This document shows, in pieces, positions 6,632 through 50,702 of a DNA stretch of 64,000 nt; within the stretch, counting starts at the first letter, position 1, and each line of letters starts with the position of its first letter. Origin of the DNA: an uncultured virus (IMG/VR IMGVR_UViG_3300014208_001449) (taxonomy: Duplodnaviria; Heunggongvirae; Uroviricota; Caudoviricetes); IMG/VR virus record IMGVR_UViG_3300014208_001449; one strand, 5' to 3'. Both the position numbers and the translations under genes were made by a program. Under the pieces are notes generated by a model. That model did not search any database, was not told where the DNA came from, and saw only the letters and a list, made by a program, of their open reading frames with translations.

Positions 6632-6809
6632 TCTCCCTGGCAGAAAGCAAGATTCCGGTTGACGGCCGGAAAAGAACCAAAGCCCATGCGGCACTTTGGG
6701 CGGACACTCCCAAGAGTTTCTCGTTAGAGCAAGTGCTTGCGGAGTACCTGAAACGGCAGAGAGAACAAGCAGAAAACCAGAAGAAACGGAACAAAGGAGA
6801 GTAGAAATC

Positions 6810-7130
6810 ATGCAGACCAAGTTTGAAGCTTACGAAGTACCCGTAAAGCGTGACGAGTTGGGTGCTTGGGCGCACCCGGACTTTCCGTGGGACAATTGGC
6901 CCGACAACACAAGCCTGGACCCCTATTTCGAGAGTCTGAATTTCAGATGCAAGAGCGTGTTGATGCAGGACGAACTGGAGGGCGAGGCTCTCAACAATTA
7001 CTTTGACAACAGTGAGACTGATTACTCTCTCTGGGAACCCAGAAAACCCGACGGCGCAGGTTGGTTCCTGGCAGCCATCCACGACACGGACGAGGGGCCT
7101 TGTGCTCGCTGGGTTGCCCCTCTGAAATAG
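6810..7130 (+). CDS. hypothetical protein (tandem paralog A)
   Basis: WEPRKPDGAGWFLAAIHDTDEGP; AAGGAG RBS. Confidence 0.75.
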   Translation: MQTKFEAYEVPVKRDELGAWAHPDFPWDNWPDNTSLDPYFESLNFRCKSVLMQDELEGEALNNYFDNSETDYSLWEPRKPDGAGWFLAAIHDTDEGPCARWVAPLK

Positions 7131-7144
7131 CGAAAGGAGCACCC

Positions 7145-7669
7145 ATGATCGTCAAGTTTGAAGCTCACGAAGTGCCTGCCATGCGTAACGAGTATGGCTA
7201 CTGGGACCATCCGGCTTTTCCGTGGGACACGTGGCCGGATGACACCAACTTAGCTCCCTACTTCAAGGACCTGGGCTTCAGGTGTAAAGGCACCTTGATG
7301 CAAGACGAACTGGACGTCGAGGTGGTTGACAAGTTCTTCGACGATGGGGAAACAGACTGCACCTTCTGGGAACCGAAGAAACCTGACGGACAGGGTTGGT
7401 TCCTGGCCTCTATCCACGACACCGAAGAAGGACCTTGCGCTCTGTGGGTCTCTCCCATTCTGGTAACAGTGTCCTCTATCGTCGTGGACTACCTGACGGA
7501 GAAAGGTTTCGACGGGCTGTTCAACAGTGATATTGGCTGTGCCTGTGCTTTCGAAGACCTGTTTGAAAATTGCGCCGGGGAAAGCTGTAGCGAATGTCAG
7601 CCTGGATATGAGAAGCCGTGTGCCTGTGGCGAGCACGATTTCCACATTTCGGCAGAGAAGGCAGTATAG
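7145..7669 (+). CDS. hypothetical protein (tandem paralog B plus Cys-rich C-terminal domain)
   Basis: WEPKKPDGQGWFLASIHDTEEGP followed by CAC...C..C tail. Confidence 0.75.
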   Translation: MIVKFEAHEVPAMRNEYGYWDHPAFPWDTWPDDTNLAPYFKDLGFRCKGTLMQDELDVEVVDKFFDDGETDCTFWEPKKPDGQGWFLASIHDTEEGPCALWVSPILVTVSSIVVDYLTEKGFDGLFNSDIGCACAFEDLFENCAGESCSECQPGYEKPCACGEHDFHISAEKAV

Positions 7670-10953: not shown

Positions 10954-11414
10954 GACCCGACTGGGACGACTATTTCCTGTCCATTGCCAAGGTGGTGGCG
11001 ACTCGTTCTAACTGCGTCCGTCGCCAAACCGGAGCAGTGATTGTCACGCAGGAACACCAGATCATCACGACTGGCTATAACGGCACGCCTCGGGGGTACC
11101 GAAATTGTGACGAGGGAGGTTGCCCCCGTTGCAGTGGCGACGCCCCTAGCGGGTCTGACCTGTCTGAATGTTTCTGCTCCCACGCCGAAGAGAATGCAAT
11201 TGTCCAGGCCGCCCTTCATGGCGTGAGCGTGAAAGACGGCCATATGTATGCCACCCACTCCCCCTGCCTCATCTGTGCCAAAATGATCGTCAACGCAGGG
11301 ATCCGACTGGTGGTCTTCGAAACTCTGTACCCGACCTTTGAAGCACAATCCAAGCCACTGCTCAAAGCATGCGGCGTCACGCTCGTCTACAAAAGAGACG
11401 GAAAGGATAGCTAA
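10950..11414 (+). CDS. dCMP deaminase
   Basis: WDDYF, TGYNG, HAEENA, PCLIC zinc-deaminase motifs. Confidence 0.93.
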   Translation: MRPDWDDYFLSIAKVVATRSNCVRRQTGAVIVTQEHQIITTGYNGTPRGYRNCDEGGCPRCSGDAPSGSDLSECFCSHAEENAIVQAALHGVSVKDGHMYATHSPCLICAKMIVNAGIRLVVFETLYPTFEAQSKPLLKACGVTLVYKRDGKDS

Positions 11415-11415
11415 A

Positions 11416-12966
11416 ATGGACACCAACGATCTCCGTCAACTCGACGCCTTTGTGACCAACCCGGGCGGCAGTGTTTACTGCATCAAGAACCTGCCCGAAG
11501 AGGTGGTTGCGGTCCTCTTCGCCTACGTCTCACGGAACCCTGACAGCATCCAGCTCAACTTGCTGAAAATGCTCCAACAGCAGAACGGGGACGGCGCTAT
11601 CGATCCTGCCATGTTCGACCTCTTTGACTTGGCTTCGGAGAAAGCAGCAAAGTTCCACGAGAAGTGGGTTGTGGGGTATGGGCATGCTTCGGTTGCAGAG
11701 CACGCCGTCCTGCACTACGGTATCGAGGGCATTTCCATCCTGGCCACGAAGGTCCTGGAAGACGCCCGTCTCGCGGCTTATACCGAGAAGTCGACCCGTT
11801 ACCAGTTCTTCGGGAAAGACACGTTCTACCTGCCCGAGAGTCTGGAACAGTACCGCCCTGATATGAACCGCCTCATGGAGGACTACCGAAACCTTTTCGG
11901 GGAGGTCTACGCTCGACTCGAAGAAAAGTACCCTCCGAAGGAAGACCTTAACGACGAGGGGAAAGCTTACTTTGCAGCCCTGAAAGCCCAAACGTGTGAT
12001 GCTGTCCGCGGGCTGCTCCCTGCGGGAACCAAGACCATGCTGGGGATGACGGTAAATGCAAGAGAAGCGGCGTACGTCATTTCGAAGCTCCTGTCGAATC
12101 CGCTTCAGGAATGCCAAGACCTGGGTCGAGAGATGCTGGCCGAAGGCCGGAAAGTTTGCCCCACTCTGTTCCGTCATGCTGAAGCTTCTGATGCGCTGAA
12201 AGAATTCAGTGACCATGTTTACCACACCCCCAGAGCGGACTACCTGTTCGAGGACTCTAAACTGCCCGCCCTCAAAAGGAACGAAGTCAAGCTCATTCGA
12301 AGCTGGCCTGACAGCGGGGACGCTACAGAATTCCTGTCTAGAGCCGAGAGGTATGAGCACAGCAATGCTCCCATGGAGGCTATGGCTAACTGCAGGGTAG
12401 AAGACCTGAAAACTCTAGCGGCATGCGACGGGGGGCATTTAAATCGTATCCGGCAAATCATGAACATGGATGCCCACGCGGCTCCCCCCAGGTTTTTTGA
12501 GTTGATGCGCTTCGTTTTCGAGATCACCTGTGACTACGGAGCATTCAGGGATATTCAGCGGCACCGAATCGGAACCCAACTGTCTCCCCTCTTCACAGCA
12601 TCTTTGGGCTATGAAGTGCCCGAGGAAATCTTGAACCTGGGGTTGCAACCCCTCTATGCCGCCGCCATCGAGAGGGTCAAGAAAGCCTACCTCAGTGCCT
12701 GTGAGGGGTCGGGATTTACTGACTGCCAGTACCTGCTCCCCATGGCTTTCAGAAAGCGCCTTCTCGTCGATTGGGACCTCCGGGAGGTAATCCATTTCAT
12801 CCGGCTGCGTTCTGGCCCGCAGGGCCACATCTCGTACCGGAAAATTGCATGGTCAATGCGGGATCAGATCCTGGCAAAGTTCCCGGAGTTGGAACCGTTT
12901 GTTACGGCAGATACCAACGAATATCCGCTTGGTAGAATGGCTGCGTATGTGTCGGAGACGGAGTAG
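11416..12966 (+). CDS. thyX: FAD-dependent thymidylate synthase, two-domain type
   Basis: YGHASVAEH and EKSTRY in N-half; RDIQRHR and LRSGPQGHISYR in C-half. Confidence 0.88.
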   Translation: MDTNDLRQLDAFVTNPGGSVYCIKNLPEEVVAVLFAYVSRNPDSIQLNLLKMLQQQNGDGAIDPAMFDLFDLASEKAAKFHEKWVVGYGHASVAEHAVLHYGIEGISILATKVLEDARLAAYTEKSTRYQFFGKDTFYLPESLEQYRPDMNRLMEDYRNLFGEVYARLEEKYPPKEDLNDEGKAYFAALKAQTCDAVRGLLPAGTKTMLGMTVNAREAAYVISKLLSNPLQECQDLGREMLAEGRKVCPTLFRHAEASDALKEFSDHVYHTPRADYLFEDSKLPALKRNEVKLIRSWPDSGDATEFLSRAERYEHSNAPMEAMANCRVEDLKTLAACDGGHLNRIRQIMNMDAHAAPPRFFELMRFVFEITCDYGAFRDIQRHRIGTQLSPLFTASLGYEVPEEILNLGLQPLYAAAIERVKKAYLSACEGSGFTDCQYLLPMAFRKRLLVDWDLREVIHFIRLRSGPQGHISYRKIAWSMRDQILAKFPELEPFVTADTNEYPLGRMAAYVSETE

Positions 12967-24259: not shown

Positions 24260-24478
24260 ATGAGCGCCTGTGATGATTGCCGTTATCTGCGACCTCCATG
24301 TACCTGCCCAAACCCATTGTCCTCTCCGGGAGTCCCAAGGGATTGCTGCAAGAAACCCAAGAGGAACCGTACCGTCCAGAGGTTCTCGTGTCCAGATTGC
24401 GGGGCTGTCTTGGATGTGGAGAGTGACTCCGAACTTCCGTCAGATATATTTCTTCGATTCGTGAGACACGGAGGCTAG
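24260..24478 (+). CDS. small Cys-rich protein
   Basis: GGAGG RBS; CPDCG. Confidence 0.55.
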   Translation: MSACDDCRYLRPPCTCPNPLSSPGVPRDCCKKPKRNRTVQRFSCPDCGAVLDVESDSELPSDIFLRFVRHGG

Positions 24479-24643
24479 ACCATGTTGAGTAGATTCCGCA
24501 ACTGGCTCTATCACCGACGGATCCGCCGAGCGTTCCAATCCAACCCACTCATCGAAATCGACCCTCTGGGCAGAATTGTCGTGCCCCGCACCTGCCAAAA
24601 AGGCAGGACCGTGCTGCGTGACTCCAACGGGGAGTACTGAGAA

Positions 24644-24910
24644 ATGACCACGACCACCCACGTCAGTTGCTCCAAGTGCCACCAACACGCGATTCCTCCC
24701 AAGGGAACACTGCATTGGGCAAAGTTCACGGTCAAGTCCTCGTACTATGCATTCCTCGACGGAACGATAGACGAAACCATAGAAGTAGACCTCTGCCCTG
24801 CCTGCAAAAAGTTGCTCAATGGTTTCCTGCACAACAACGAATTTGAGCCTTCCTACAGGAGACTTTTCCTGGAGCGGGGTTGCGATGGCAATGTAGATCC
24901 GAACTGCTAA
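24644..24910 (+). CDS. putative zinc-binding hypothetical protein
   Basis: CSKC...DLCPAC. Confidence 0.6.
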   Translation: MTTTTHVSCSKCHQHAIPPKGTLHWAKFTVKSSYYAFLDGTIDETIEVDLCPACKKLLNGFLHNNEFEPSYRRLFLERGCDGNVDPNC

Positions 24911-24922
24911 CGGGCCGAGAAC

Positions 24923-24951
24923 TTGACAAGACCGGCCTCTGGTGCTAGACT
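24923..24951 (+). promoter_or_regulatory. sigma70-type promoter
   Basis: TTGACA-N17-TAGACT with extended TG. Confidence 0.6.
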
Positions 24952-25004
24952 GAGGCCCATCAAGTGCGAAGTGTGTTTGATTAACTGCTCCGGAGACGGA
25001 AGCC

Positions 25005-25622
25005 ATGGTGCCTTTTTTACTCTGCTTTTTGATGCACGCCATACCGGCGGCGCACAACTACTACCAGTTCACAATGCCCGACCAGGAGATCCGGCAAATC
25101 ATCCTGAACGCTCCCAAGTGGGACGGAAATGAGGGCCTGGAAAGGAACACCGCCGACTTGCTCTGCGAAGCCCTCTCAATGGCCAAGGCCCCCAAGCACC
25201 TGCAGATATCCGGAGCCCAGGCCGATTTCTTCTGTGATCATGCCCTGGACGTTGCCTTAACCGCCCGAGCCTACCGGTTGGACCCGTGGATTTTTGCAGC
25301 TCTAGGGACTACCGAAAGCCGTTGGTCCCCGAAAGCAGTCTCTCCGAAGGGAGCCTGTGGGCTTTATCAAGTTATGCCACACAAGGGCTACCCTTCCTGT
25401 GCCACGATGAAGAAGAATCACAGACAGGCAATCCTGGCTGGCGGGAAGGCCCTTCGAATGTGGCTGGATTTCTGCGAGGGGGACTTGGAGTGTGGACTCC
25501 GGAGTTACAATGGCGGGACCAGAGGCCCCAAGATGAAGGATACCGCGGGGTTCTATCGAGACATCGTGGACCTGACGATGCGGTACAAGAGCGTGTTCGA
25601 GCGGGATTTGCCGACTACCTAG
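25005..25622 (+). CDS. lytic transglycosylase (SLT domain)
   Basis: ESRWSPKAVSPKGACGLYQVMP...SYNGG. Confidence 0.88.
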   Translation: MVPFLLCFLMHAIPAAHNYYQFTMPDQEIRQIILNAPKWDGNEGLERNTADLLCEALSMAKAPKHLQISGAQADFFCDHALDVALTARAYRLDPWIFAALGTTESRWSPKAVSPKGACGLYQVMPHKGYPSCATMKKNHRQAILAGGKALRMWLDFCEGDLECGLRSYNGGTRGPKMKDTAGFYRDIVDLTMRYKSVFERDLPTT

Positions 25623-25648
25623 TTTCAATCTCTCCTCGGATCGGGTAT
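25622..25648 (+). promoter_or_regulatory. class-1 promoter motif
   Basis: GTTT-N17-GGGTAT. Confidence 0.65.
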
Positions 25649-25684
25649 TGTGTTTCCGTAACTCCTGGAGGATAGGAAAAACCC

Positions 25685-26179
25685 ATGGCCCTTCGACTCG
25701 ACGAAGCCCTCGTCAACAACATTGGCGAACTCCTGCTCAATCCTCGGCACCAGCAAATGACCACCCAGCTCGGAACCATTGAAGCCGATTGCAAGCGGCA
25801 ACTGGCCATTTCCAAGGACGGCCAGAACGGACACTTGTGCATCAAGCTCGAAGACGCCCTGTCCGCTCTGCGGCAACAGGCTGTCATCGAGGAGTGCGCC
25901 AAGTGGATCTCTTTCATCGAAGTCCTGCGGGAGAAGGGCGAAGGAGAGCAGGAAATCCTTACCCGAGTCCGTGAGGAGGTTGAATCCTATTCCGCGGATA
26001 TCACCCGCGAAACGGACACCTTCTCGGAATCGTTCGTCGACTGCAACGATCCCGATATGCGACTCGCCATGCTAGCCAACTTCAGCATGGCCCACAGCGC
26101 CCGTGAAGGAACCCTGACCGCCCTCCGTTTCATCCTCACGACCGTCAAGAACCTGCTCAATCCGAAAAAGGGCTGGTAA
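25685..26179 (+). CDS. hypothetical protein
   Basis: AGGA RBS. Confidence 0.65.
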   Translation: MALRLDEALVNNIGELLLNPRHQQMTTQLGTIEADCKRQLAISKDGQNGHLCIKLEDALSALRQQAVIEECAKWISFIEVLREKGEGEQEILTRVREEVESYSADITRETDTFSESFVDCNDPDMRLAMLANFSMAHSAREGTLTALRFILTTVKNLLNPKKGW

Positions 26180-26203
26180 AGCCCCCTGCCATCGTCGATT
26201 CTG

Positions 26204-26230
26204 GTTTCATTCCTCCGCTCCCTGGTGTAT
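26204..26230 (+). promoter_or_regulatory. class-1 promoter motif
   Basis: GTTT-N17-GTGTAT. Confidence 0.75.
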
Positions 26231-26261
26231 ATAGAGGACGAGAGATTGGGAGGAAAAAACC

Positions 26262-26669
26262 ATGAGTCCGACTTGCGACGATTTCTATGCCGTTCAGGAA
26301 CGGCTGGAGCAGTACGCCGAGTGGTTGATGGAGCATGACCTCGCCCTGTGGGCCGGTTCCAAAACCAGCTTCAACCTTGACAAAGGCCATCTCAAGTGCA
26401 TCGATATCAGTGAGGGACTACAGTTCATCTGGGAAGATTGGAATGATTCGGTTCTGAAATTCAGAGCCTCTCCCGAAGAGGTGTTCTGCGAAGATGCCCT
26501 CGAAAAGATCCTTGAACGAAAGAACCGGTACTTCCAGGAGCAGGTTGATCTAGCCGCCCGACGGGTAGAGAAGCTTGCCCAACTGGAGGCGGAGAAGGCC
26601 CGCCTCACCGAAGCGGCCGAACGGGAAACCCTGGCCCTGCTGACGGCCAAATACAAGGACCGCACATGA
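26262..26669 (+). CDS. hypothetical coiled-coil protein (similar C-terminus to 40796..41269)
   Basis: ER..L..L.AKY end. Confidence 0.7.
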   Translation: MSPTCDDFYAVQERLEQYAEWLMEHDLALWAGSKTSFNLDKGHLKCIDISEGLQFIWEDWNDSVLKFRASPEEVFCEDALEKILERKNRYFQEQVDLAARRVEKLAQLEAEKARLTEAAERETLALLTAKYKDRT

Positions 26670-27844
26670 CCAGCCCTCTCGTAGAAGCACTGAAGGAAAT
26701 TCGATTGTCCGAAGGGCACGAGGGAGAGGAAGGCCCGCTCCCTGGCTATCATAACCAAGTGGGGTTGGTACACACCCGTCACGGGGACTACGAGGTAGTC
26801 CAAACCCCAGAGTACAAGGCTTGTCGGGGGTCAAAATACAACTACCGGCTCGATATGAAGACCGGCGAGTTCTTCCGCTGGGGCAATACCCCCGAGGAAG
26901 ATCCCGAATTCGCCCCCGCCGGTCCTGAAATCCTGGACCTGGAAGTCAGCACCAACGGGTGCCCGAATGCCTGCCCCTTCTGCTACAAGGGGAACACGGC
27001 AGAAAAACCAACGAACATGACCTTGGACACCTTCAAGGATATCTTCCGCAGGTTTCCCCCCACCCTGACGTCCATTGCCTTCGGTATCACGGGGGTCGAA
27101 ACGAATCCTGACCTTCTGCCGATGATGCGGCATGCTCTGGCCAATGGGGTAAAGCCGAACCTCACGCTCTCGGGCATTGACCTCACCCCAGAACGGGCCA
27201 AGGATCTCGCCGAGGTCTGCGGTGGTATTGCCGTCAGTCTCTACGAGAAGGACAAGGAGACGGGGTACAACGCTGTCAAGATGCTCGTGGATGCTGGGAT
27301 GCAGCAGGTTACCGTCCACCTGATGGTGTCCAAGCAGACCCTGCCCTTCACTCGCGGGGTACTGGCCGACTACCAAGCGGGTGAACCTAGGCTTCAAGGG
27401 ATCACGGCTTTCGTGTTCCTGAGTCTGAAACCCAAGGGCAGAGCGGCGGGGACGTTTGATATCCTTCCTGCCAGCACATTCTCTCGACTGACTCGGGAGT
27501 GCCTTGCCAAGAATATCCCGTTCGGATTCGACTCGTGCTCCGCACCTCGATTCGAACGGGCCCTGCAGTACACCGTGCCCGTCAAGGTACGGGAGCAACT
27601 CATGATGACGTGCGAGTCCTGTGAATCCGGACTGTTCTCCTCCTACGTGTCGGCGGACGGCACCTACTATCCTTGCTCTTTCGCTGAGGGTGTCGAAGGT
27701 ATCCAGGGGATCAAGGTGCAGGACCACGAGAGTTTCCTGTCAATTTGGTACCATCCAGAGGTGCTGGCGTGGCGGGAAAATCTCCTGGCCAACCGGACCA
27801 AAGCGGGGACTAGGTACTGCCAGATTTACAAGGAGATCAACTAG
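26666..27844 (+). CDS. radical SAM protein with SPASM/Twitch-like C-terminus
   Basis: CPNACPFC; CESCESGLFSSYVSADGTYYPCSF...C. Confidence 0.9.
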   Translation: MTSPLVEALKEIRLSEGHEGEEGPLPGYHNQVGLVHTRHGDYEVVQTPEYKACRGSKYNYRLDMKTGEFFRWGNTPEEDPEFAPAGPEILDLEVSTNGCPNACPFCYKGNTAEKPTNMTLDTFKDIFRRFPPTLTSIAFGITGVETNPDLLPMMRHALANGVKPNLTLSGIDLTPERAKDLAEVCGGIAVSLYEKDKETGYNAVKMLVDAGMQQVTVHLMVSKQTLPFTRGVLADYQAGEPRLQGITAFVFLSLKPKGRAAGTFDILPASTFSRLTRECLAKNIPFGFDSCSAPRFERALQYTVPVKVREQLMMTCESCESGLFSSYVSADGTYYPCSFAEGVEGIQGIKVQDHESFLSIWYHPEVLAWRENLLANRTKAGTRYCQIYKEIN

Positions 27845-27847
27845 GCC

Positions 27848-28210
27848 ATGAAGTATCGCTTGGGTTGGGTCAGCAATTCCTCGTCGAGCAGCTTCATCCT
27901 GCTTAGGGCTCTCCTGACGCCAAAGCAGGAGCGGGAGATCCTGGGTTTCATCGACAAGGAGGGGTTCTACAGACACAACGTGACGGAAAGGCACATGTTC
28001 CTTTTCGCTACGGGAATGGCCGACACGGATGACCTACTTGAGTTGATGAAGAAGCGGAAGGTCCCGCAGGCGGCAATTTGGTTTGCCAAGGAGCACTCCA
28101 CGGCCCAGGACGAGATCGAAAACAAGTACGACTGGTTCTCAACGGCAATGTTTGACCAGCCGTTTATCGACCACCTGCTGACCACGTATCCGGACGGAGG
28201 AAACGACTAA
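27848..28210 (+). CDS. hypothetical protein with N-terminal MKxRxxxVSNSSSSSF motif
   Basis: MKYRLGWVSNSSSSSFILL directly after radical SAM gene. Confidence 0.75.
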   Translation: MKYRLGWVSNSSSSSFILLRALLTPKQEREILGFIDKEGFYRHNVTERHMFLFATGMADTDDLLELMKKRKVPQAAIWFAKEHSTAQDEIENKYDWFSTAMFDQPFIDHLLTTYPDGGND

Positions 28211-28416
28211 TGCGCATGACCGTTCGCAAACTGATATCTCTGCTGCACAAAATGCCTCAGAACGCTTTTGTAGTCTGGTCTGACCACGACCAGGGGGACG
28301 GCGAGATGAACAGCTATGTCGGGACTGTGCAGGAAGCCCGACCTGAGCTTATCGAGGCCCGTCTCGCTATCGGGGATATCAAACCAGGAACGAAACTCGT
28401 TGAACTGAGGTGGTAG
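28210..28416 (+). CDS. hypothetical protein (paralog of 42900..43106)
   Basis: TV..LI..L.KMP..A...W.DHD.G.G.MN.YV. Confidence 0.7.
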   Translation: MRMTVRKLISLLHKMPQNAFVVWSDHDQGDGEMNSYVGTVQEARPELIEARLAIGDIKPGTKLVELRW

Positions 28417-28417
28417 C

Positions 28418-28657
28418 GTGGTAAATCCTGTTCAGAGTTTCGTCCCCGCCCCAGGCCATGAGTGGCAAAACAGGCTGCTCGTGCTCTGGCGCTGTTCCTG
28501 CGGAACCAAGTTCACGAGGCGGATTCTCCCCCGTCTCTGGGGATTCAAGGGGATTGAAACAAAGTGTCCTCACTGCCAAAAGACCCTCAGTGAACTGACT
28601 GACAACCCAGAGGTACTTCGCGGAACAGCACCTCTCGTGGAGACCTTCGATGCTTAA
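28418..28657 (+). CDS. small zinc-ribbon-like protein
   Basis: CSCG...CPHC. Confidence 0.55.
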   Translation: MVNPVQSFVPAPGHEWQNRLLVLWRCSCGTKFTRRILPRLWGFKGIETKCPHCQKTLSELTDNPEVLRGTAPLVETFDA

Positions 28658-29093
28658 CCGCCGTCAGCTCCGGCCTTACCTCGACACCCTTCGGACCTTG
28701 AGCACCCGCAAGGCCCCGAACCTGCTCGCCGTTGTCCTGCAGAGCATCGATGCCTTGCGACAGGAATCCCTCTCTCCCGGGGCTCAGAAGGAACTCTGCC
28801 AGATCATTCAGGAGGTCCTCCCCGCCCTGAGTATCGAGGAGTACGAAGAGGTGGCTGCTCAGTGCCTATGGTGGGCTGCAAGCTTTCCCACTGAGCTGAA
28901 TCCTCTTCGGGTTCGTTTCCTGGGACTAGCGGCGGGACGCTTCTATGACTTGTCGGGAGAGCGGAGACTGGCAGTCGAAAGAGGGATCAATTCGTTGCCC
29001 TTCTCAGGTCCTTTGCAGGCGGACCTGCAATTGAAGCTGGCTTGGCTACGGGATCTCGTCAGTCAAGGTCAAGCCCGAGTTGTTGTTCCATAA
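28650..29093 (+). CDS. hypothetical helical protein
   Basis: overlapping start. Confidence 0.55.
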   Translation: MLNRRQLRPYLDTLRTLSTRKAPNLLAVVLQSIDALRQESLSPGAQKELCQIIQEVLPALSIEEYEEVAAQCLWWAASFPTELNPLRVRFLGLAAGRFYDLSGERRLAVERGINSLPFSGPLQADLQLKLAWLRDLVSQGQARVVVP

Positions 29094-29190
29094 TCACCTT
29101 GCTTCCGAACTGAAGATAGCCAACAGCCTCCAACGGCGTGACCTGGGCCTGATAAACCTGAATCTGGTCCCCGCTGTCGACCACAATCAT
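29059..29190 (-). pseudogene. 3' half of gene split by the TnpB element
   Basis: MIVVDSGDQIQVYQAQVTPLEAVGYLQFGSKVIMEQQLGLDLD* joins in frame with the 5' half at 30408-30572. Confidence 0.65.
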
Positions 29191-30407
29191 GGTTGCTCTC
29201 AGCTTTTCGGCATCGAGCTTGGAAGTAAACGGAAACCATAAATTCCCGCCAGCGCAAGGTCTCGGATGTTCTTAGCAGCATTGAGGTCGGCATGATCCGA
29301 ATGGCCACAAAACACGCATTTGAACACGTCGCCCTTACGGCTTCGTTTGTCCCATTTCCCACATTTCGGGCATCGTTGTGAGGTTTTCCAAGGATCTTTT
29401 CGTTCCAGCCGAATCCCAAGCTCCTCACACCTTTGCTCCAACCATGTGGAATAGGTTCCGTAGAACCAATGAGACAACCGCCTATTGAACCTACGCGGAA
29501 ACTTTCCGCGTGTACCAGATTTAACGTTTTTCAAATCCTCGATCGCAAGTACCTGAACGCCCTTGAAATCCAAGCCCTTGAGAGCATGAAACATCATGCT
29601 CTTTGCCTCGGCCTTGGTGTGCTTCTGTCTCTTCGAGAATTCCTGGATCCTGTCGTAGACCTCTTTCCCGATGAACTGCCCGTCAGAAGTGACAAGGCCA
29701 TTCTTATAGTTAGAATCGAGTCCCAGGACTTCGCCCTTTTCACGGATGGCGGGACGGGGCTTTTCCAGGAGGAAATCCACGAACAACCGTTTAGTCTTAC
29801 CGGAACAGTCGTAACCGAGTCGAATTGAATTCCCCAGAGTCCAACCCGCTCCAAGCTTCCTGTTGAGGTGCTCAGTCGACTTACACGGGATGATCATCTT
29901 AGGAGCCCCAGAGCCGCCGAGCTTGATCGCCCAATCGAATTTGGCGTTAGTTCCGGGAGCATTTTCAAAAGGTTCGATCTTGACAAAGTGGGAATAGAGG
30001 GTCATGGTGTGCTGGTGGAGGTTGGGTTTATGGGGGTGCTTGGTCATGAACTTAGCCCGTTTTCGGGAGGAGCGGATAGTCTCCTTGGCCTGTTTAGCAC
30101 AAGCCTGGGCCAGCCGAGCGGCAATCCCGAAACGGTCACAACCTCTGTGAACGGTGTCGAGATCGGCCAGGGTGGCAGAGAAGTCTTTCCTCTGCCAGAA
30201 AAGATCGATGAAATACTGGGTCACGTCGTGGCCCAGAAGGAGGAACAAAACGACTTCTTGGGTCTTGGTTGTGTTGAGGTCGTTAAGATAAACTCTGGAG
30301 GATCGGCGCATCGTAGGAACACGAAATTTAGGATGCGCCTTGATCACTTACGGAGTCCTTCTCTGTTGGATCTTACTATACCCGATTTGAGACGAAACAG
30401 AGGAACT
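29191..30407 (-). mobile_element. non-autonomous TnpB-only IS200/IS605-like element (about 1.2 kb)
   Basis: contains only tnpB; ATGATT present at both junctions; interrupts a gene. Confidence 0.7.
29199..30347 (-). CDS. tnpB: TnpB RNA-guided endonuclease
   Basis: RuvC GLDSN / IEDL / HADLNAA and CPKCG...CVFCG zinc ribbon. Confidence 0.88.
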   Translation of the reverse strand: MIKAHPKFRVPTMRRSSRVYLNDLNTTKTQEVVLFLLLGHDVTQYFIDLFWQRKDFSATLADLDTVHRGCDRFGIAARLAQACAKQAKETIRSSRKRAKFMTKHPHKPNLHQHTMTLYSHFVKIEPFENAPGTNAKFDWAIKLGGSGAPKMIIPCKSTEHLNRKLGAGWTLGNSIRLGYDCSGKTKRLFVDFLLEKPRPAIREKGEVLGLDSNYKNGLVTSDGQFIGKEVYDRIQEFSKRQKHTKAEAKSMMFHALKGLDFKGVQVLAIEDLKNVKSGTRGKFPRRFNRRLSHWFYGTYSTWLEQRCEELGIRLERKDPWKTSQRCPKCGKWDKRSRKGDVFKCVFCGHSDHADLNAAKNIRDLALAGIYGFRLLPSSMPKS

Positions 30408-49409: not shown

Positions 49410-50702
49410 TTACTTGTCTAGCTCCAATTGAGCTTCGTCAACGTTCGGTTCCTGCTTCACAGAGTCAAGTTGTGCCCCCTCCCCCGTAGGTACATAAGAG
49501 CCAGAGCTTGTCTCTCCACAGGCTTCTGTGATCCGTTTCTTCTTCCTTTTCGGCTTCCGAACAGGAGGAAGGAGAACGGAGCACACGGGGGAACTCCCCG
49601 CTAACTTCGTTAATTTTGCTAACTGAACCAAGTTGATCGCTGCGTTGTGATCCCTGTCAGCTTCGAAACCACAAGCCTCGCAAATGAATGTTCTTTCCCC
49701 TAGAGTCAGTTCTTTCTTTACTACACCACAGGCGGAACACCTCTTAGACGAAGGGAACCATCGATCCGCCTTAACCACAGTCCCGCCCGCCATCCACATC
49801 TTGTACGTGATCATTCTGTGAAGACTGCCGGGCGAGGCGTCCGCAAGTGCCTTCGCCAAGCAATGGTTCTTCGCCATCCCAGCAACGTTCAACGTCTCTA
49901 ACACGACCGTTTCGGCTCGCTTGGCTATCGCGTCCGAAACTTTGTGCAGGGCGTCGTTGCGCTGACAGGCGACTTTATAGTGTTGCTTGGCTAGTGCAGT
50001 TTTGGCTTTCTTGGAGTTCTCGGATCCTTTCTTCTTGCGAGAGAGGGACTTTTGTAAAAGGCGTAGCCTCCTTTCTGACCGTTTAAGGGCTCGTGGATTT
50101 TCGAAAACTGTCCCATCGGATAAGACTGCCAAGGACTTGATCCCTACGTCAACTCCCAGGGTTTCTGTCCCCAGAGGTCGAACGTGGGGCTCATCGGTTT
50201 GAATTGAGACAAACCACCTACCCGCTCGTTCCGAAACCGTTGCTGACTTGATTTCGACGTCAGTTGGAAAGTACCCGTGCTCTTTAAGACGGAGCCATCC
50301 GATACGGGGAAGACGGATTCTTTGTTCTGTTACCAGAACACTCCCACGTAGAGTGAATGACCCGATCCCGTCTTTTTTCTTCTTGAACTTAGGATAGCCT
50401 TTCTTCTTACACTTAGGATCCCTACATCGGCGGAAAAACCCATCCATTCCGGAATCTACGTTGGCCAGAGCCCCCTCAGAAACTTTAACCGGAATATCAT
50501 TCAGCCAAGTGAACTCTGTTTTCTTGAGTTGCGTGAGTTCCTTCAGGAGATCATAGGCGGTATGGTACTTCTCCCCGTTCTTATAGGTTTCGTTTTTCCT
50601 TCTAAGACCATAGTTGAATACCCAACGAGCAGCACCTGAGTACTGCTTGCAAGTAGTTTTCTGCTTGTTGTTCAAATCCAACTCGGTCTTATAGGATCTC
50701 AT
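49410..50702 (-). CDS. tnpB: TnpB RNA-guided endonuclease (IS607/IS605 OrfB)
   Basis: HTH ARWVFN, GYPKFKKK, GVDVG, LETL, FPSSKRCSACG, DRDHNAA. Confidence 0.93.
   Translation of the reverse strand: MRSYKTELDLNNKQKTTCKQYSGAARWVFNYGLRRKNETYKNGEKYHTAYDLLKELTQLKKTEFTWLNDIPVKVSEGALANVDSGMDGFFRRCRDPKCKKKGYPKFKKKKDGIGSFTLRGSVLVTEQRIRLPRIGWLRLKEHGYFPTDVEIKSATVSERAGRWFVSIQTDEPHVRPLGTETLGVDVGIKSLAVLSDGTVFENPRALKRSERRLRLLQKSLSRKKKGSENSKKAKTALAKQHYKVACQRNDALHKVSDAIAKRAETVVLETLNVAGMAKNHCLAKALADASPGSLHRMITYKMWMAGGTVVKADRWFPSSKRCSACGVVKKELTLGERTFICEACGFEADRDHNAAINLVQLAKLTKLAGSSPVCSVLLPPVRKPKRKKKRITEACGETSSGSYVPTGEGAQLDSVKQEPNVDEAQLELDK

Follow-up and report, generated by a model that had tools for sequence, protein, structure and literature searches.

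What does a radical S-adenosylmethionine (SAM) enzyme do beside a small protein that begins with a run of serines? The question is raised by one locus in a 64-kb window (positions 1-based) from the uncultured tailed-phage record IMGVR_UViG_3300014208_001449; by the window we mean the whole stretch of phage DNA analyzed, 64,000 nucleotides of a 189,794-bp contig, with a G+C content of 55%. On the plus strand, the gene for a 392-amino-acid (aa) enzyme (26666-27844) ends with a TAG codon at 27842-27844 and is followed, after a gap of 3 nt, by the ATG at 27848 of a same-strand open reading frame (ORF) for a 120-aa protein (27848-28210), exactly as an initial annotation of this DNA had delimited and described the two ORFs. 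The small protein begins MKYRLGWVSNSSSSSF (N-terminus of the ORF: MKYRLGWVSNSSSSSFILL) and is composed of an orphan body and an N-terminal tag, MKYRLGWVSNSSSSSFIL (residues 1-18; 27848-27901), which fits the logo of a tag family described below. We refer to proteins that carry this tag as clients. Because the enzyme and the tag proteins are linked in position, co-occur when searched from either side, have no third partner and covary, and because the enzyme has a maturase-like fold, we consider it very likely that they form a functional pair. The simplest reading, to which we give somewhat better than even chances, is that the tag is the substrate of the enzyme, which would then be a leader-guided radical SAM maturase modifying the serine tag of many clients.

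The coupling was assessed in both directions. Used as a single query, the window enzyme sequence retrieved no related loci, and an alignment of the enzyme family (A1) was used instead, by which 80 IMG/VR loci with flanks of ±6 kb were chosen. ORFs starting with the pattern MKxRxGFVSNSS[ST][ST]SF were present in 69 of these 80 loci, with one to eight in each, in agreement with the statement in the initial annotation that proteins with such a motif often flank radical SAM genes in large phages. With that of the window included, 264 tag ORFs were found, all on the strand of the enzyme and none on the opposite strand (216 downstream and 47 upstream of the enzyme), and the nearest tag ORF lay within 1 kb of the enzyme in 54 of 70 loci. 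Eight of the 11 tag-free loci are contigs of Slopekvirus/Pseudotevenvirus type, and tags occur about 20 kb away in one such contig and in phage phiEap-3; the other three are fragmentary (2-13% complete) and tag-free over their entire records.

For the reverse direction, IMG/VR was searched with a degenerate DNA pattern for the tag, which matched at least 153 stretches and gave 78 loci with 10-kb flanks on 57 distinct contigs; the enzyme was called by hmmsearch with A1 at E<1e-10. Among the matches listed, 35 of the 57 contigs encode the enzyme within 10 kb of the tag, and a search of the whole records of the remaining 22 located it in seven more (completeness 96, 85, 100, 58, 77, 33, and 100%), so that 42 of the 57 carry it. 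The 15 contigs without the enzyme are each at most 40% complete, and the enzyme is present on every listed tag contig with a completeness of 58% or more. The co-occurrence across genomes that the initial annotation had put forward as a check was in this way borne out from both sides.

Cultured phages gave a similar picture. The enzyme is present in 172 of 50,697 cultured phage records, and a client of phiEap-3 (P0123) in 175, with a nearly equal split by genus, or by the first word of the phage name: Klebsiella (110 records with the enzyme and 115 with the client), Enterobacter (20 and 20), Cronobacter (14 and 14), Citrobacter (11 and 11), Escherichia (9 and 9), Raoultella (2 and 2), and Pseudotevenvirus, RB43 among them (2 and 2). 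This client belongs to cluster 0, the most widespread client family (e.g., L051 7653-8126; phiEap-3 ALA45223.1). Cultured carriers of the system include RB43 and RB16 of E. coli, KP15, phiEap-3, with its two tag genes at a distance of 19-23 kb from the enzyme, and Vibrio phage D479, where the enzyme and five tag genes share one strand. In prokaryotes, represented by one genome for each of 185,579 species, the enzyme was found at five loci only, all in metagenome-assembled genomes; two of the four loci long enough to judge have adjoining tags, and in the other two the tags are on other contigs of the same bin. Five records (one of them 85% complete, the others at least 96%) contained 10, 5, 5, 8, and 3 copies of the tag, on a single strand in each. 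No recurrent gene family besides the enzyme and the tag proteins was found as a third partner in 72 non-duplicate loci.

The tag logo reads M1 K2 x R4 x G6 F7 V8 S9 N10 S11 S12 S13 S14 S15 F16, and the motif MKxRxxFV(S/T)NSSSSSF given in the initial annotation proved accurate, its S/T alternative included. A strict search, the expression of which did not force K2, R4, G6, F7, or V8, returned 224 unique ORFs with these residues in 221, 223, 209, 207, and 215 of them, respectively. In a looser search (414 unique ORFs), N10, S11, and S12 were each conserved in 413 and S15 in 404, while S13 and S14 allow Thr, Ala, and Cys. Trp at position 7 of the window client is a rare variant, and its tag is the sole such N-terminal serine run within the window. 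Against a library of 1.84 billion proteins, a profile of the first 40 residues matched 25,919 representative clusters (50% identity) at E<=0.001 and 1,252 at the stricter E<=1e-10; among the best 150 stretches listed, 139 begin at residue 1. Each serine position of the tag uses both the AGY and the TCN boxes, and since all six serine codons occur at each of them, the coding sequences indicate that selection on the tag is at the level of the peptide and not of the DNA; both codons available for N10 and for F16 are likewise in use, with no change in the peptide. The motif is well outside what chance would give, and the reversed tag pattern, used as a control, had no match in any of the four scans that included it. 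Among the library proteins P0124-P0133, some predicted proteins have two tags in one chain; these may be fused neighboring ORFs or, for P0124, a tandem duplication of the tag and the first strand.

The residue at position 9 of the tag follows the enzyme clade. A divergent, long-branch enzyme clade (146-151 bits against A1), known from four near-identical loci and two further genomes, pairs only with tags that have Thr at position 9 (FV-T-NSSSSSF), 8 of 8 in the four loci and 5 of 5 in each of the two genomes, vs. 483 Ser, 5 Ala, and no Thr at this position in the 115 loci of the main clade. The two clades differ at 13 of 52 conserved enzyme columns, including W72 and G73 in the N-terminal domain and E93, K108, and N110 beside the SAM cluster. 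Rare tag variants are also common to unrelated clients of one genome, such as 'SLV' in 4 of 4 clients of L008, 'HV' at positions 7-8 in 4 of 4 of L009, and 'MRTRQ' in 3 of 3 of L053. This concordance within genomes at positions 2, 3, 5, 6, 7, and 9 was reached by none of 2000 shuffles.

The enzyme itself belongs to the PHROG 7293 family (phrog_7293, E 3.4e-69, residues 44-388 against positions 18-361 of the 384-position profile), which is annotated as 'unknown function'. The CxxxCxxC radical SAM assignment of the initial annotation was confirmed by Pfam Radical_SAM (PF04055; 34.6 bits against a gathering cutoff of 29.5, E 2.8e-8) and by the [4Fe-4S] motif C99-x3-C103-x2-C106 (CPNACPFC; codons at 26960-26983), which is invariant in 30 of 30 relatives. 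The family has 979 relatives at E<=1e-5, many of them on contigs of 100-520 kb, and no sequence relative in the PDB at E<=1. Outside the SAM cluster, only four cysteines are invariant in the alignment of 30 members, C291, C319, C337, and C385, all within a C-terminal domain of residues 289-388 (27530-27829). SPASM domains are defined by seven or eight cysteines ligating two auxiliary [4Fe-4S] clusters. With just four further invariant cysteines in the 30 relatives, the window enzyme lacks this two-cluster signature, and its C-terminal domain fits a single, Twitch-like auxiliary cluster. The Cys-rich SPASM/Twitch-like tail proposed earlier is only partly supported: the Pfam SPASM match (PF13186, residues 319-370) falls below threshold, with 14.9 bits against 21.5. 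Some relatives of the enzyme do have a precomputed PF13186 match. NCBIfam models (PqqE, sactipeptide, SPASM, and Twitch) are matched only far below threshold, e.g., N_Twi_rSAM with 11.9 bits against a cutoff of 170 and rSAM_skfB with 12.1 against 300. No PqqD-type recognition element of systems for peptides that are made by ribosomes and modified after translation (RiPPs), an RRE, was matched by Pfam in the enzyme at E<=0.1. Homing endonuclease genes lie beside or inside the enzyme gene in cultured phages, namely Vibrio phage D479 (L250 10106-10834) and Cronobacter phage leB, where the enzyme match is in two pieces, and the gene is reported to be split in phage Kpn35c1 (PMC9960720).

The AlphaFold2 model of the enzyme, with a mean predicted local distance difference test score (pLDDT) of 88.8, consists of five beta strands within residues 31-72, the radical SAM core, and the cysteine domain, in this order. 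The N-terminal strands (31-37, 40-46, 50-54, 59-63, and 69-72), without helices, make up a family-specific beta-rich domain of about residues 30-75 (26753-26890), with the conserved motif YNYxF..TGxFxRWG, in which G67, R71, and G73 are invariant. This domain aligns where the N-terminal domains of SuiB and SkfB sit, and on the basis of the model we infer that it is a candidate tag-binding domain. The closest structure is SuiB with its precursor (5v1t; Z 24.8, root-mean-square deviation 3.4 Å over 314 residues with 14% identity, model residues 29-392 against chain residues 2-437), followed by SkfB (6efn; Z 22.1, model 49-389), CteB (Z 20.5), anSMEcpe (4k38_B; Z 20.2, 3.3 Å over 278 residues of the core and C-terminal domain only, beginning at model residue 85), ChlB with its leader (Z 19.6), PqqE (Z 19.3), viperins (Z about 18.6), MoaA (Z 17.4), BtrN (Z 16.1), and the pyruvate formate-lyase activase PFL-AE (Z 13.9). 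Every one of the best thirteen matches modifies a peptide or protein. The suggestion in the initial annotation of a SPASM-type protein modifier is supported in part, in that the nearest structures are peptide and protein modifiers. Because the sulfatase-type substrate motif (C/S)xPxR is absent and so is the two-cluster SPASM signature, the analogy with sulfatase maturases is a lead only; the likeness of the model to anSME is one of fold, which does not show a shared function.

Taken as enzyme and substrate, the two window genes would be one copy of a phage-borne two-part system. The first part would be a radical SAM enzyme with the architecture of a peptide maturase, made up of a small N-terminal beta domain, an S-adenosylmethionine radical core, and a C-terminal one-cluster domain. 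The second would comprise the clients, from one to at least ten per genome, with unrelated bodies and a common 16-residue tag, M-K-x-R-x-G-F-V-S/T-N-S-S-S-S-S-F. The physical recognition of the tag, the modified residue, and the chemistry are proposals that go beyond these patterns. The enzyme would recognize the first half of the tag, MKxRxGFV, as a maturase does a leader peptide, abstract a hydrogen atom from a residue within S9-S15, in an N-terminal tail that is flexible, and modify every client covalently. The flexible tail is suggested by the AlphaFold2 model of a cluster-0 client, which has an overall pLDDT of 91.2 and values of about 50 for residues 1-10, with the first core strand at residues 13-21; because of this low score and the late start of the first strand, the first half of the tag would hang free, within reach of an active site. 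As a first guess at the chemistry, the enzyme may act as anSME and BtrN do and turn the side chain of Ser, or of Thr in the variant clade, into a carbonyl (-2 Da), a two-electron oxidation that is suggested by the putative single auxiliary cluster together with the hydroxyl residues. A cross-link, also -2 Da, is equally allowed. Epimerization (0 Da) appears less likely from the alignment, as no invariant cysteine beyond the seven cluster ligands is present to donate a hydrogen atom; in EpeE, a spare cysteine reportedly acts as the hydrogen-atom donor in epimerization. The modified tag may serve stability, packaging, covalent capture, or catalysis.

Several points weigh against the tag being a substrate of the enzyme. 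The tag contains neither a conserved cysteine nor (C/S)xPxR, so that none of the known radical SAM chemistries on peptides can be transferred to it directly, and the N-terminal domain of the enzyme, modeled as all-beta, lacks a sequence match to PqqD/RRE. The flexible tail comes from the model of one client family. The covariation at position 9 involves one clade and thus a single evolutionary event, for which reason it is a suggestive sign only of a direct link between tag and enzyme, and the concordance of rare variants within genomes could also be explained by gene conversion or by recent duplication of 5' ends. The reverse sample required G6-F7-V8 and was drawn from the matches listed, which makes it non-random. 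In the T4-like cultured phages, the enzyme is 19-23 kb away from two clients, and there is consequently no operon there.

Among the alternatives, the one that survives best, still an unlikely one, is that the tag is a sorting or handling signal in which the enzyme has no role, such as a signal for capsid targeting or injection or for a host protease or chaperone, and that the enzyme is merely co-inherited in the same accessory region and has another target. A conserved short N-terminal tag on unrelated small proteins in variable arrays does recall the internal-protein loci of phage T4, and the Slopekvirus-type tag genes, some 20 kb from the enzyme, would suit a signal that works independently. 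The coupling argues in the other direction, as it persists at the level of the genome even over such distances: among the matches listed, all six contigs that are at least 58% complete and lack a nearby enzyme encode it elsewhere, and in the cultured phages 172 records stand against 175. In addition, the S9 or T9 form of the tag goes with the clade of the enzyme, the closest folds of the enzyme are those of peptide and protein maturases, and neither a protease nor a packaging gene recurs in the neighborhood. The T4 capsid-targeting tag is cleaved by the prohead protease at Leu/Ile-x-Glu. The tag described here shares with it the short N-terminal position on unrelated small proteins in variable arrays, and differs from it in sequence and in having no conserved cleavage site, while the T4 system has no radical SAM enzyme. 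The available text of the papers on KP15/KP27 (PMC5219037) and on phiEap-3 (PMC6412083) contains no virion proteomics.

It is improbable, in our estimate, that the tag is a docking peptide by which adaptor bodies are tethered to the enzyme, the bodies bringing the actual targets (a host protein, a nucleic acid, or a metabolite) or regulating the enzyme. A single enzyme with many unrelated bodies is what such an arrangement would look like, the covariation of tag and enzyme would follow from it equally well, and some client bodies are zinc-ribbon-like, with CxxC pairs and sub-threshold matches to Pfam zinc ribbons, which suits binding of nucleic acid or protein. No precedent for it is known to us, however, and the invariant part of the tag is the serine run (N10, S11, and S12 in 413 of 414 ORFs, S15 in 404 of 414); such invariance is typical of reaction sites and odd in a strand that serves for docking alone. 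In the closest enzymes of known structure, moreover, the bound peptide is itself what is acted on.

The client bodies bear on a third alternative, which we regard as very unlikely: that the tag proteins are one fast-evolving enzyme superfamily with the serine loop as an active or ligand site, for which the radical SAM enzyme makes or recycles a common substrate or cofactor. Residues S13-F16 do fall within the first core strand of the cluster-0 model, and cluster-0 clients end with a motif, YSDxDG..LEHG..F..H.RISHH, that has an invariant D135 and nearly invariant E142, H143, and H158 and that looks catalytic, like a metal or acid-base site. These clients match phrog_7397 ('unknown function'), one of them over its full length. 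The fold of the cluster-0 model had no Foldseek match at E<=0.001, and its best wide match by VIA-align had a Z of 3.8; no known fold can be named for it from the model, which does not prove a new one. Against a single superfamily, 219 bodies stripped of their tags fell into 75 BLAST clusters, the largest with 30, 26, 17, and 17 members, and a profile-profile comparison of the 16 largest clusters detected similarity in 1 of 120 pairs. Body lengths range from 20 to 279 aa, some bodies are zinc-ribbon-like as described above, and residues 1-10 of the tag are modeled as disordered. When 150 of the 214 eligible tag proteins were scanned with Pfam, 145 had no match at E<=0.001, and one alone passed a curated cutoff, leaving 149 clients that passed none. 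The one is a 138-aa ORF of L082 (5911-6324), in which a tag (MKIRNGFVSNSSSSSFIV...) is fused to the C-terminal Fe-S domain of the enzyme, from GFDSCSAP onward. It exceeds the cutoff of Pfam SPASM with 24.0 bits, and may have arisen by recombination or represent an enzyme gene that was split.

The body of the window client is a singleton among the 75 clusters. Only the protein itself was matched among 5.8 billion proteins; no relatives were found in Pfam or NCBIfam, no sequence relative in the PDB below E 0.04, and no match by tblastn in cultured phages below E 0.3. Since phrog_7397 matches residues 1-19 only (E 0.017), and not the full length as membership would require, the window client shares the tag and not the body with this family. 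A relationship of its body to body cluster 2, noted by eye, was dropped when hhalign gave it a probability of 10%. ESM Atlas searches of the clients, that of the window included, returned only unnamed viral clusters; the structure matches of the window client were to small alpha/beta folds with template modeling (TM) scores of about 0.45-0.5, a likeness that would suit a common enzyme superfamily.

That the shared 5' end is a DNA or RNA element (a recombination site, translation-initiation cassette, or repeat) with an unselected peptide can be dismissed, although the tag always opens its ORF and the arrays are tandem, because the codon usage, with AGY and TCN at each serine and both codons at N10 and F16 of a constant peptide, rules out a DNA-level repeat, and the reversed pattern had no matches. 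A different role for the enzyme, that of a glycyl-radical activase, was considered from the R-x-G-F of the tag and ruled out by the register of the motif and by structural rank. Activases of glycyl-radical enzymes have a small fold, and their substrate glycine lies in RVxG[FWY] near the C-terminus. The R4-x-G6-F7 of the tag is one residue shorter than this and N-terminal, and the Z of 13.9 for PFL-AE is well below those of the peptide maturases.

With the tag read as a substrate, the system can be compared to known maturases. As in SuiB/StrB (5v1t, SuiB with SuiA), the radical SAM core of the window enzyme is preceded by an extra N-terminal domain and followed by a C-terminal Fe-S domain; the substrate of SuiB is ribosomally made and contains a conserved segment for recognition, as is proposed here for the tag. 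In SuiB, the SPASM domain is reportedly complete, with two auxiliary clusters, a winged-helix RRE is present, and Lys is joined to Trp in a short peptide; the window enzyme, in contrast, has four extra invariant cysteines and an all-beta N-terminal domain, and its presumed substrates are whole proteins with a serine run. In the linkage of the enzyme gene to substrate genes with a conserved segment, the system resembles RRE-dependent RiPP maturases in general, and it differs from them in having no PqqD-like winged-helix RRE but five beta strands in the modeled N-terminal domain. SkfB (6efn), a Twitch peptide maturase, has a single auxiliary-cluster domain, which the four-Cys domain of the window enzyme may resemble; it is said to form a Cys-to-Met thioether, whereas the tag has no conserved cysteine. 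The anSME proteins (anSMEcpe, 4k36-4k39; AtsB) are radical SAM enzymes that oxidize Ser or Cys within a full-length protein, as the window enzyme would. They are said to have two auxiliary clusters and no N-terminal domain, and to act on the motif (C/S)xPxR; the tag logo, S9-N-S-S-S-S-S-F16, has no Pro or Arg in register for this motif, and anSME serves one substrate family, unlike the window system with its dozens of client families.

The organization of one modifying enzyme per genome with substrates that share a recognition segment only is that of RiPP systems with one enzyme and many precursors. Prochlorosins and ProcM are an example, with a conserved leader and hypervariable cores, the leader being cut off short peptides. 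The phage system differs in enzyme class, in its folded proteins of 80-280 aa, and in its carriers, and neither a protease nor an exporter recurs near the enzyme in the 72 loci. By analogy, its logic would resemble that of such RiPPs and of sulfatase maturation, and what would be new is the use of whole, diverse proteins, the phage carriers, and the tens of thousands of clusters. PHROGs and Pfam neither link nor name the enzyme and tag families: PHROGs 7293 and 7397 are not connected in that database, and the tag is not captured as a unit common to other families. A text search of the literature for the motif and the phage enzyme found no description.

We place just short of an even chance the broader proposal that this is a general phage protein-tagging system, in which the tag marks tens of thousands of unrelated accessory proteins for one dedicated radical SAM enzyme, and a phage-specific post-translational modification, of a chemistry unseen on serine runs, controls the stability, delivery, or reactivity of an arsenal for host takeover or anti-defense. 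If the tag is modified by the enzyme, the leader-guided maturation of peptides would have a counterpart at the level of proteins, owned by phages and acting on whole folded proteins, and a very large block of phage 'dark matter' (the 25,919 tag clusters, and the 149 sampled clients without a Pfam family) would become open to a first approach. It may reveal new radical chemistry on serine and may yield a portable pair of tag and enzyme for protein engineering. As the system is present in easily grown phages, the question can be addressed in ordinary coliphages.

Within the window, the pair is preceded by a 135-aa ORF without an assigned function (26262-26669, plus strand), the stop codon of which overlaps the enzyme start codon (ATGA) and which is therefore probably co-translated with the enzyme gene. 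This ORF had no Pfam, NCBIfam, or PHROG match above noise, and it is not a recurrent neighbor across the 72 related loci. The sequence AAGGAG at 27830-27835 (plus strand), 12 nt upstream of the client ATG and within the 3' end of the enzyme gene, is a putative Shine-Dalgarno ribosome-binding site for the client ORF. The class-1 promoter that the initial annotation placed upstream of the pair most likely corresponds to a repeated motif of about 50 nt, GATTCyrGTTTCATTC-N14-GGTGTATAyA, a copy of which (26193-26244, plus strand; direct-repeat families D2/D3) ends 18 nt upstream of the 135-aa ORF. A plain sigma-70 scan of 24400-29300 yielded two sites vs. 1.4 expected, which is not above chance. 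The window holds seven to nine copies on the plus strand (at 2857, 4402, 17605, 21385, 26193, 41269, 42510, 46557, and 61123), each of about 42-52 nt and preceding a gene block, and the motif is probably a phage-specific class of promoter.

Other genes of the window encode RtcB, thymidylate kinase, a DNA methyltransferase, an endolysin, an exonuclease, and two TnpB-like proteins. The TnpB-like genes (Cas12f1-like TNB domain; PHROG 506, 'transposase'), at 29199-30347 and 49410-50702, are inserted on the opposite (minus) strand, one of them 1 kb downstream of the enzyme/client pair. A 300-nt unit at 6797-7431 is present in two tandem copies with 70% identity and a spacing of 335 nt. A 542-aa ORF at 11338-12966 (plus strand) is thymidylate-synthase-like in its middle part (PHROG 36506, E 3.9e-21, residues 109-261), and because it adjoins the thymidylate kinase and DNA methyltransferase genes, this region is possibly a pyrimidine-modification module.

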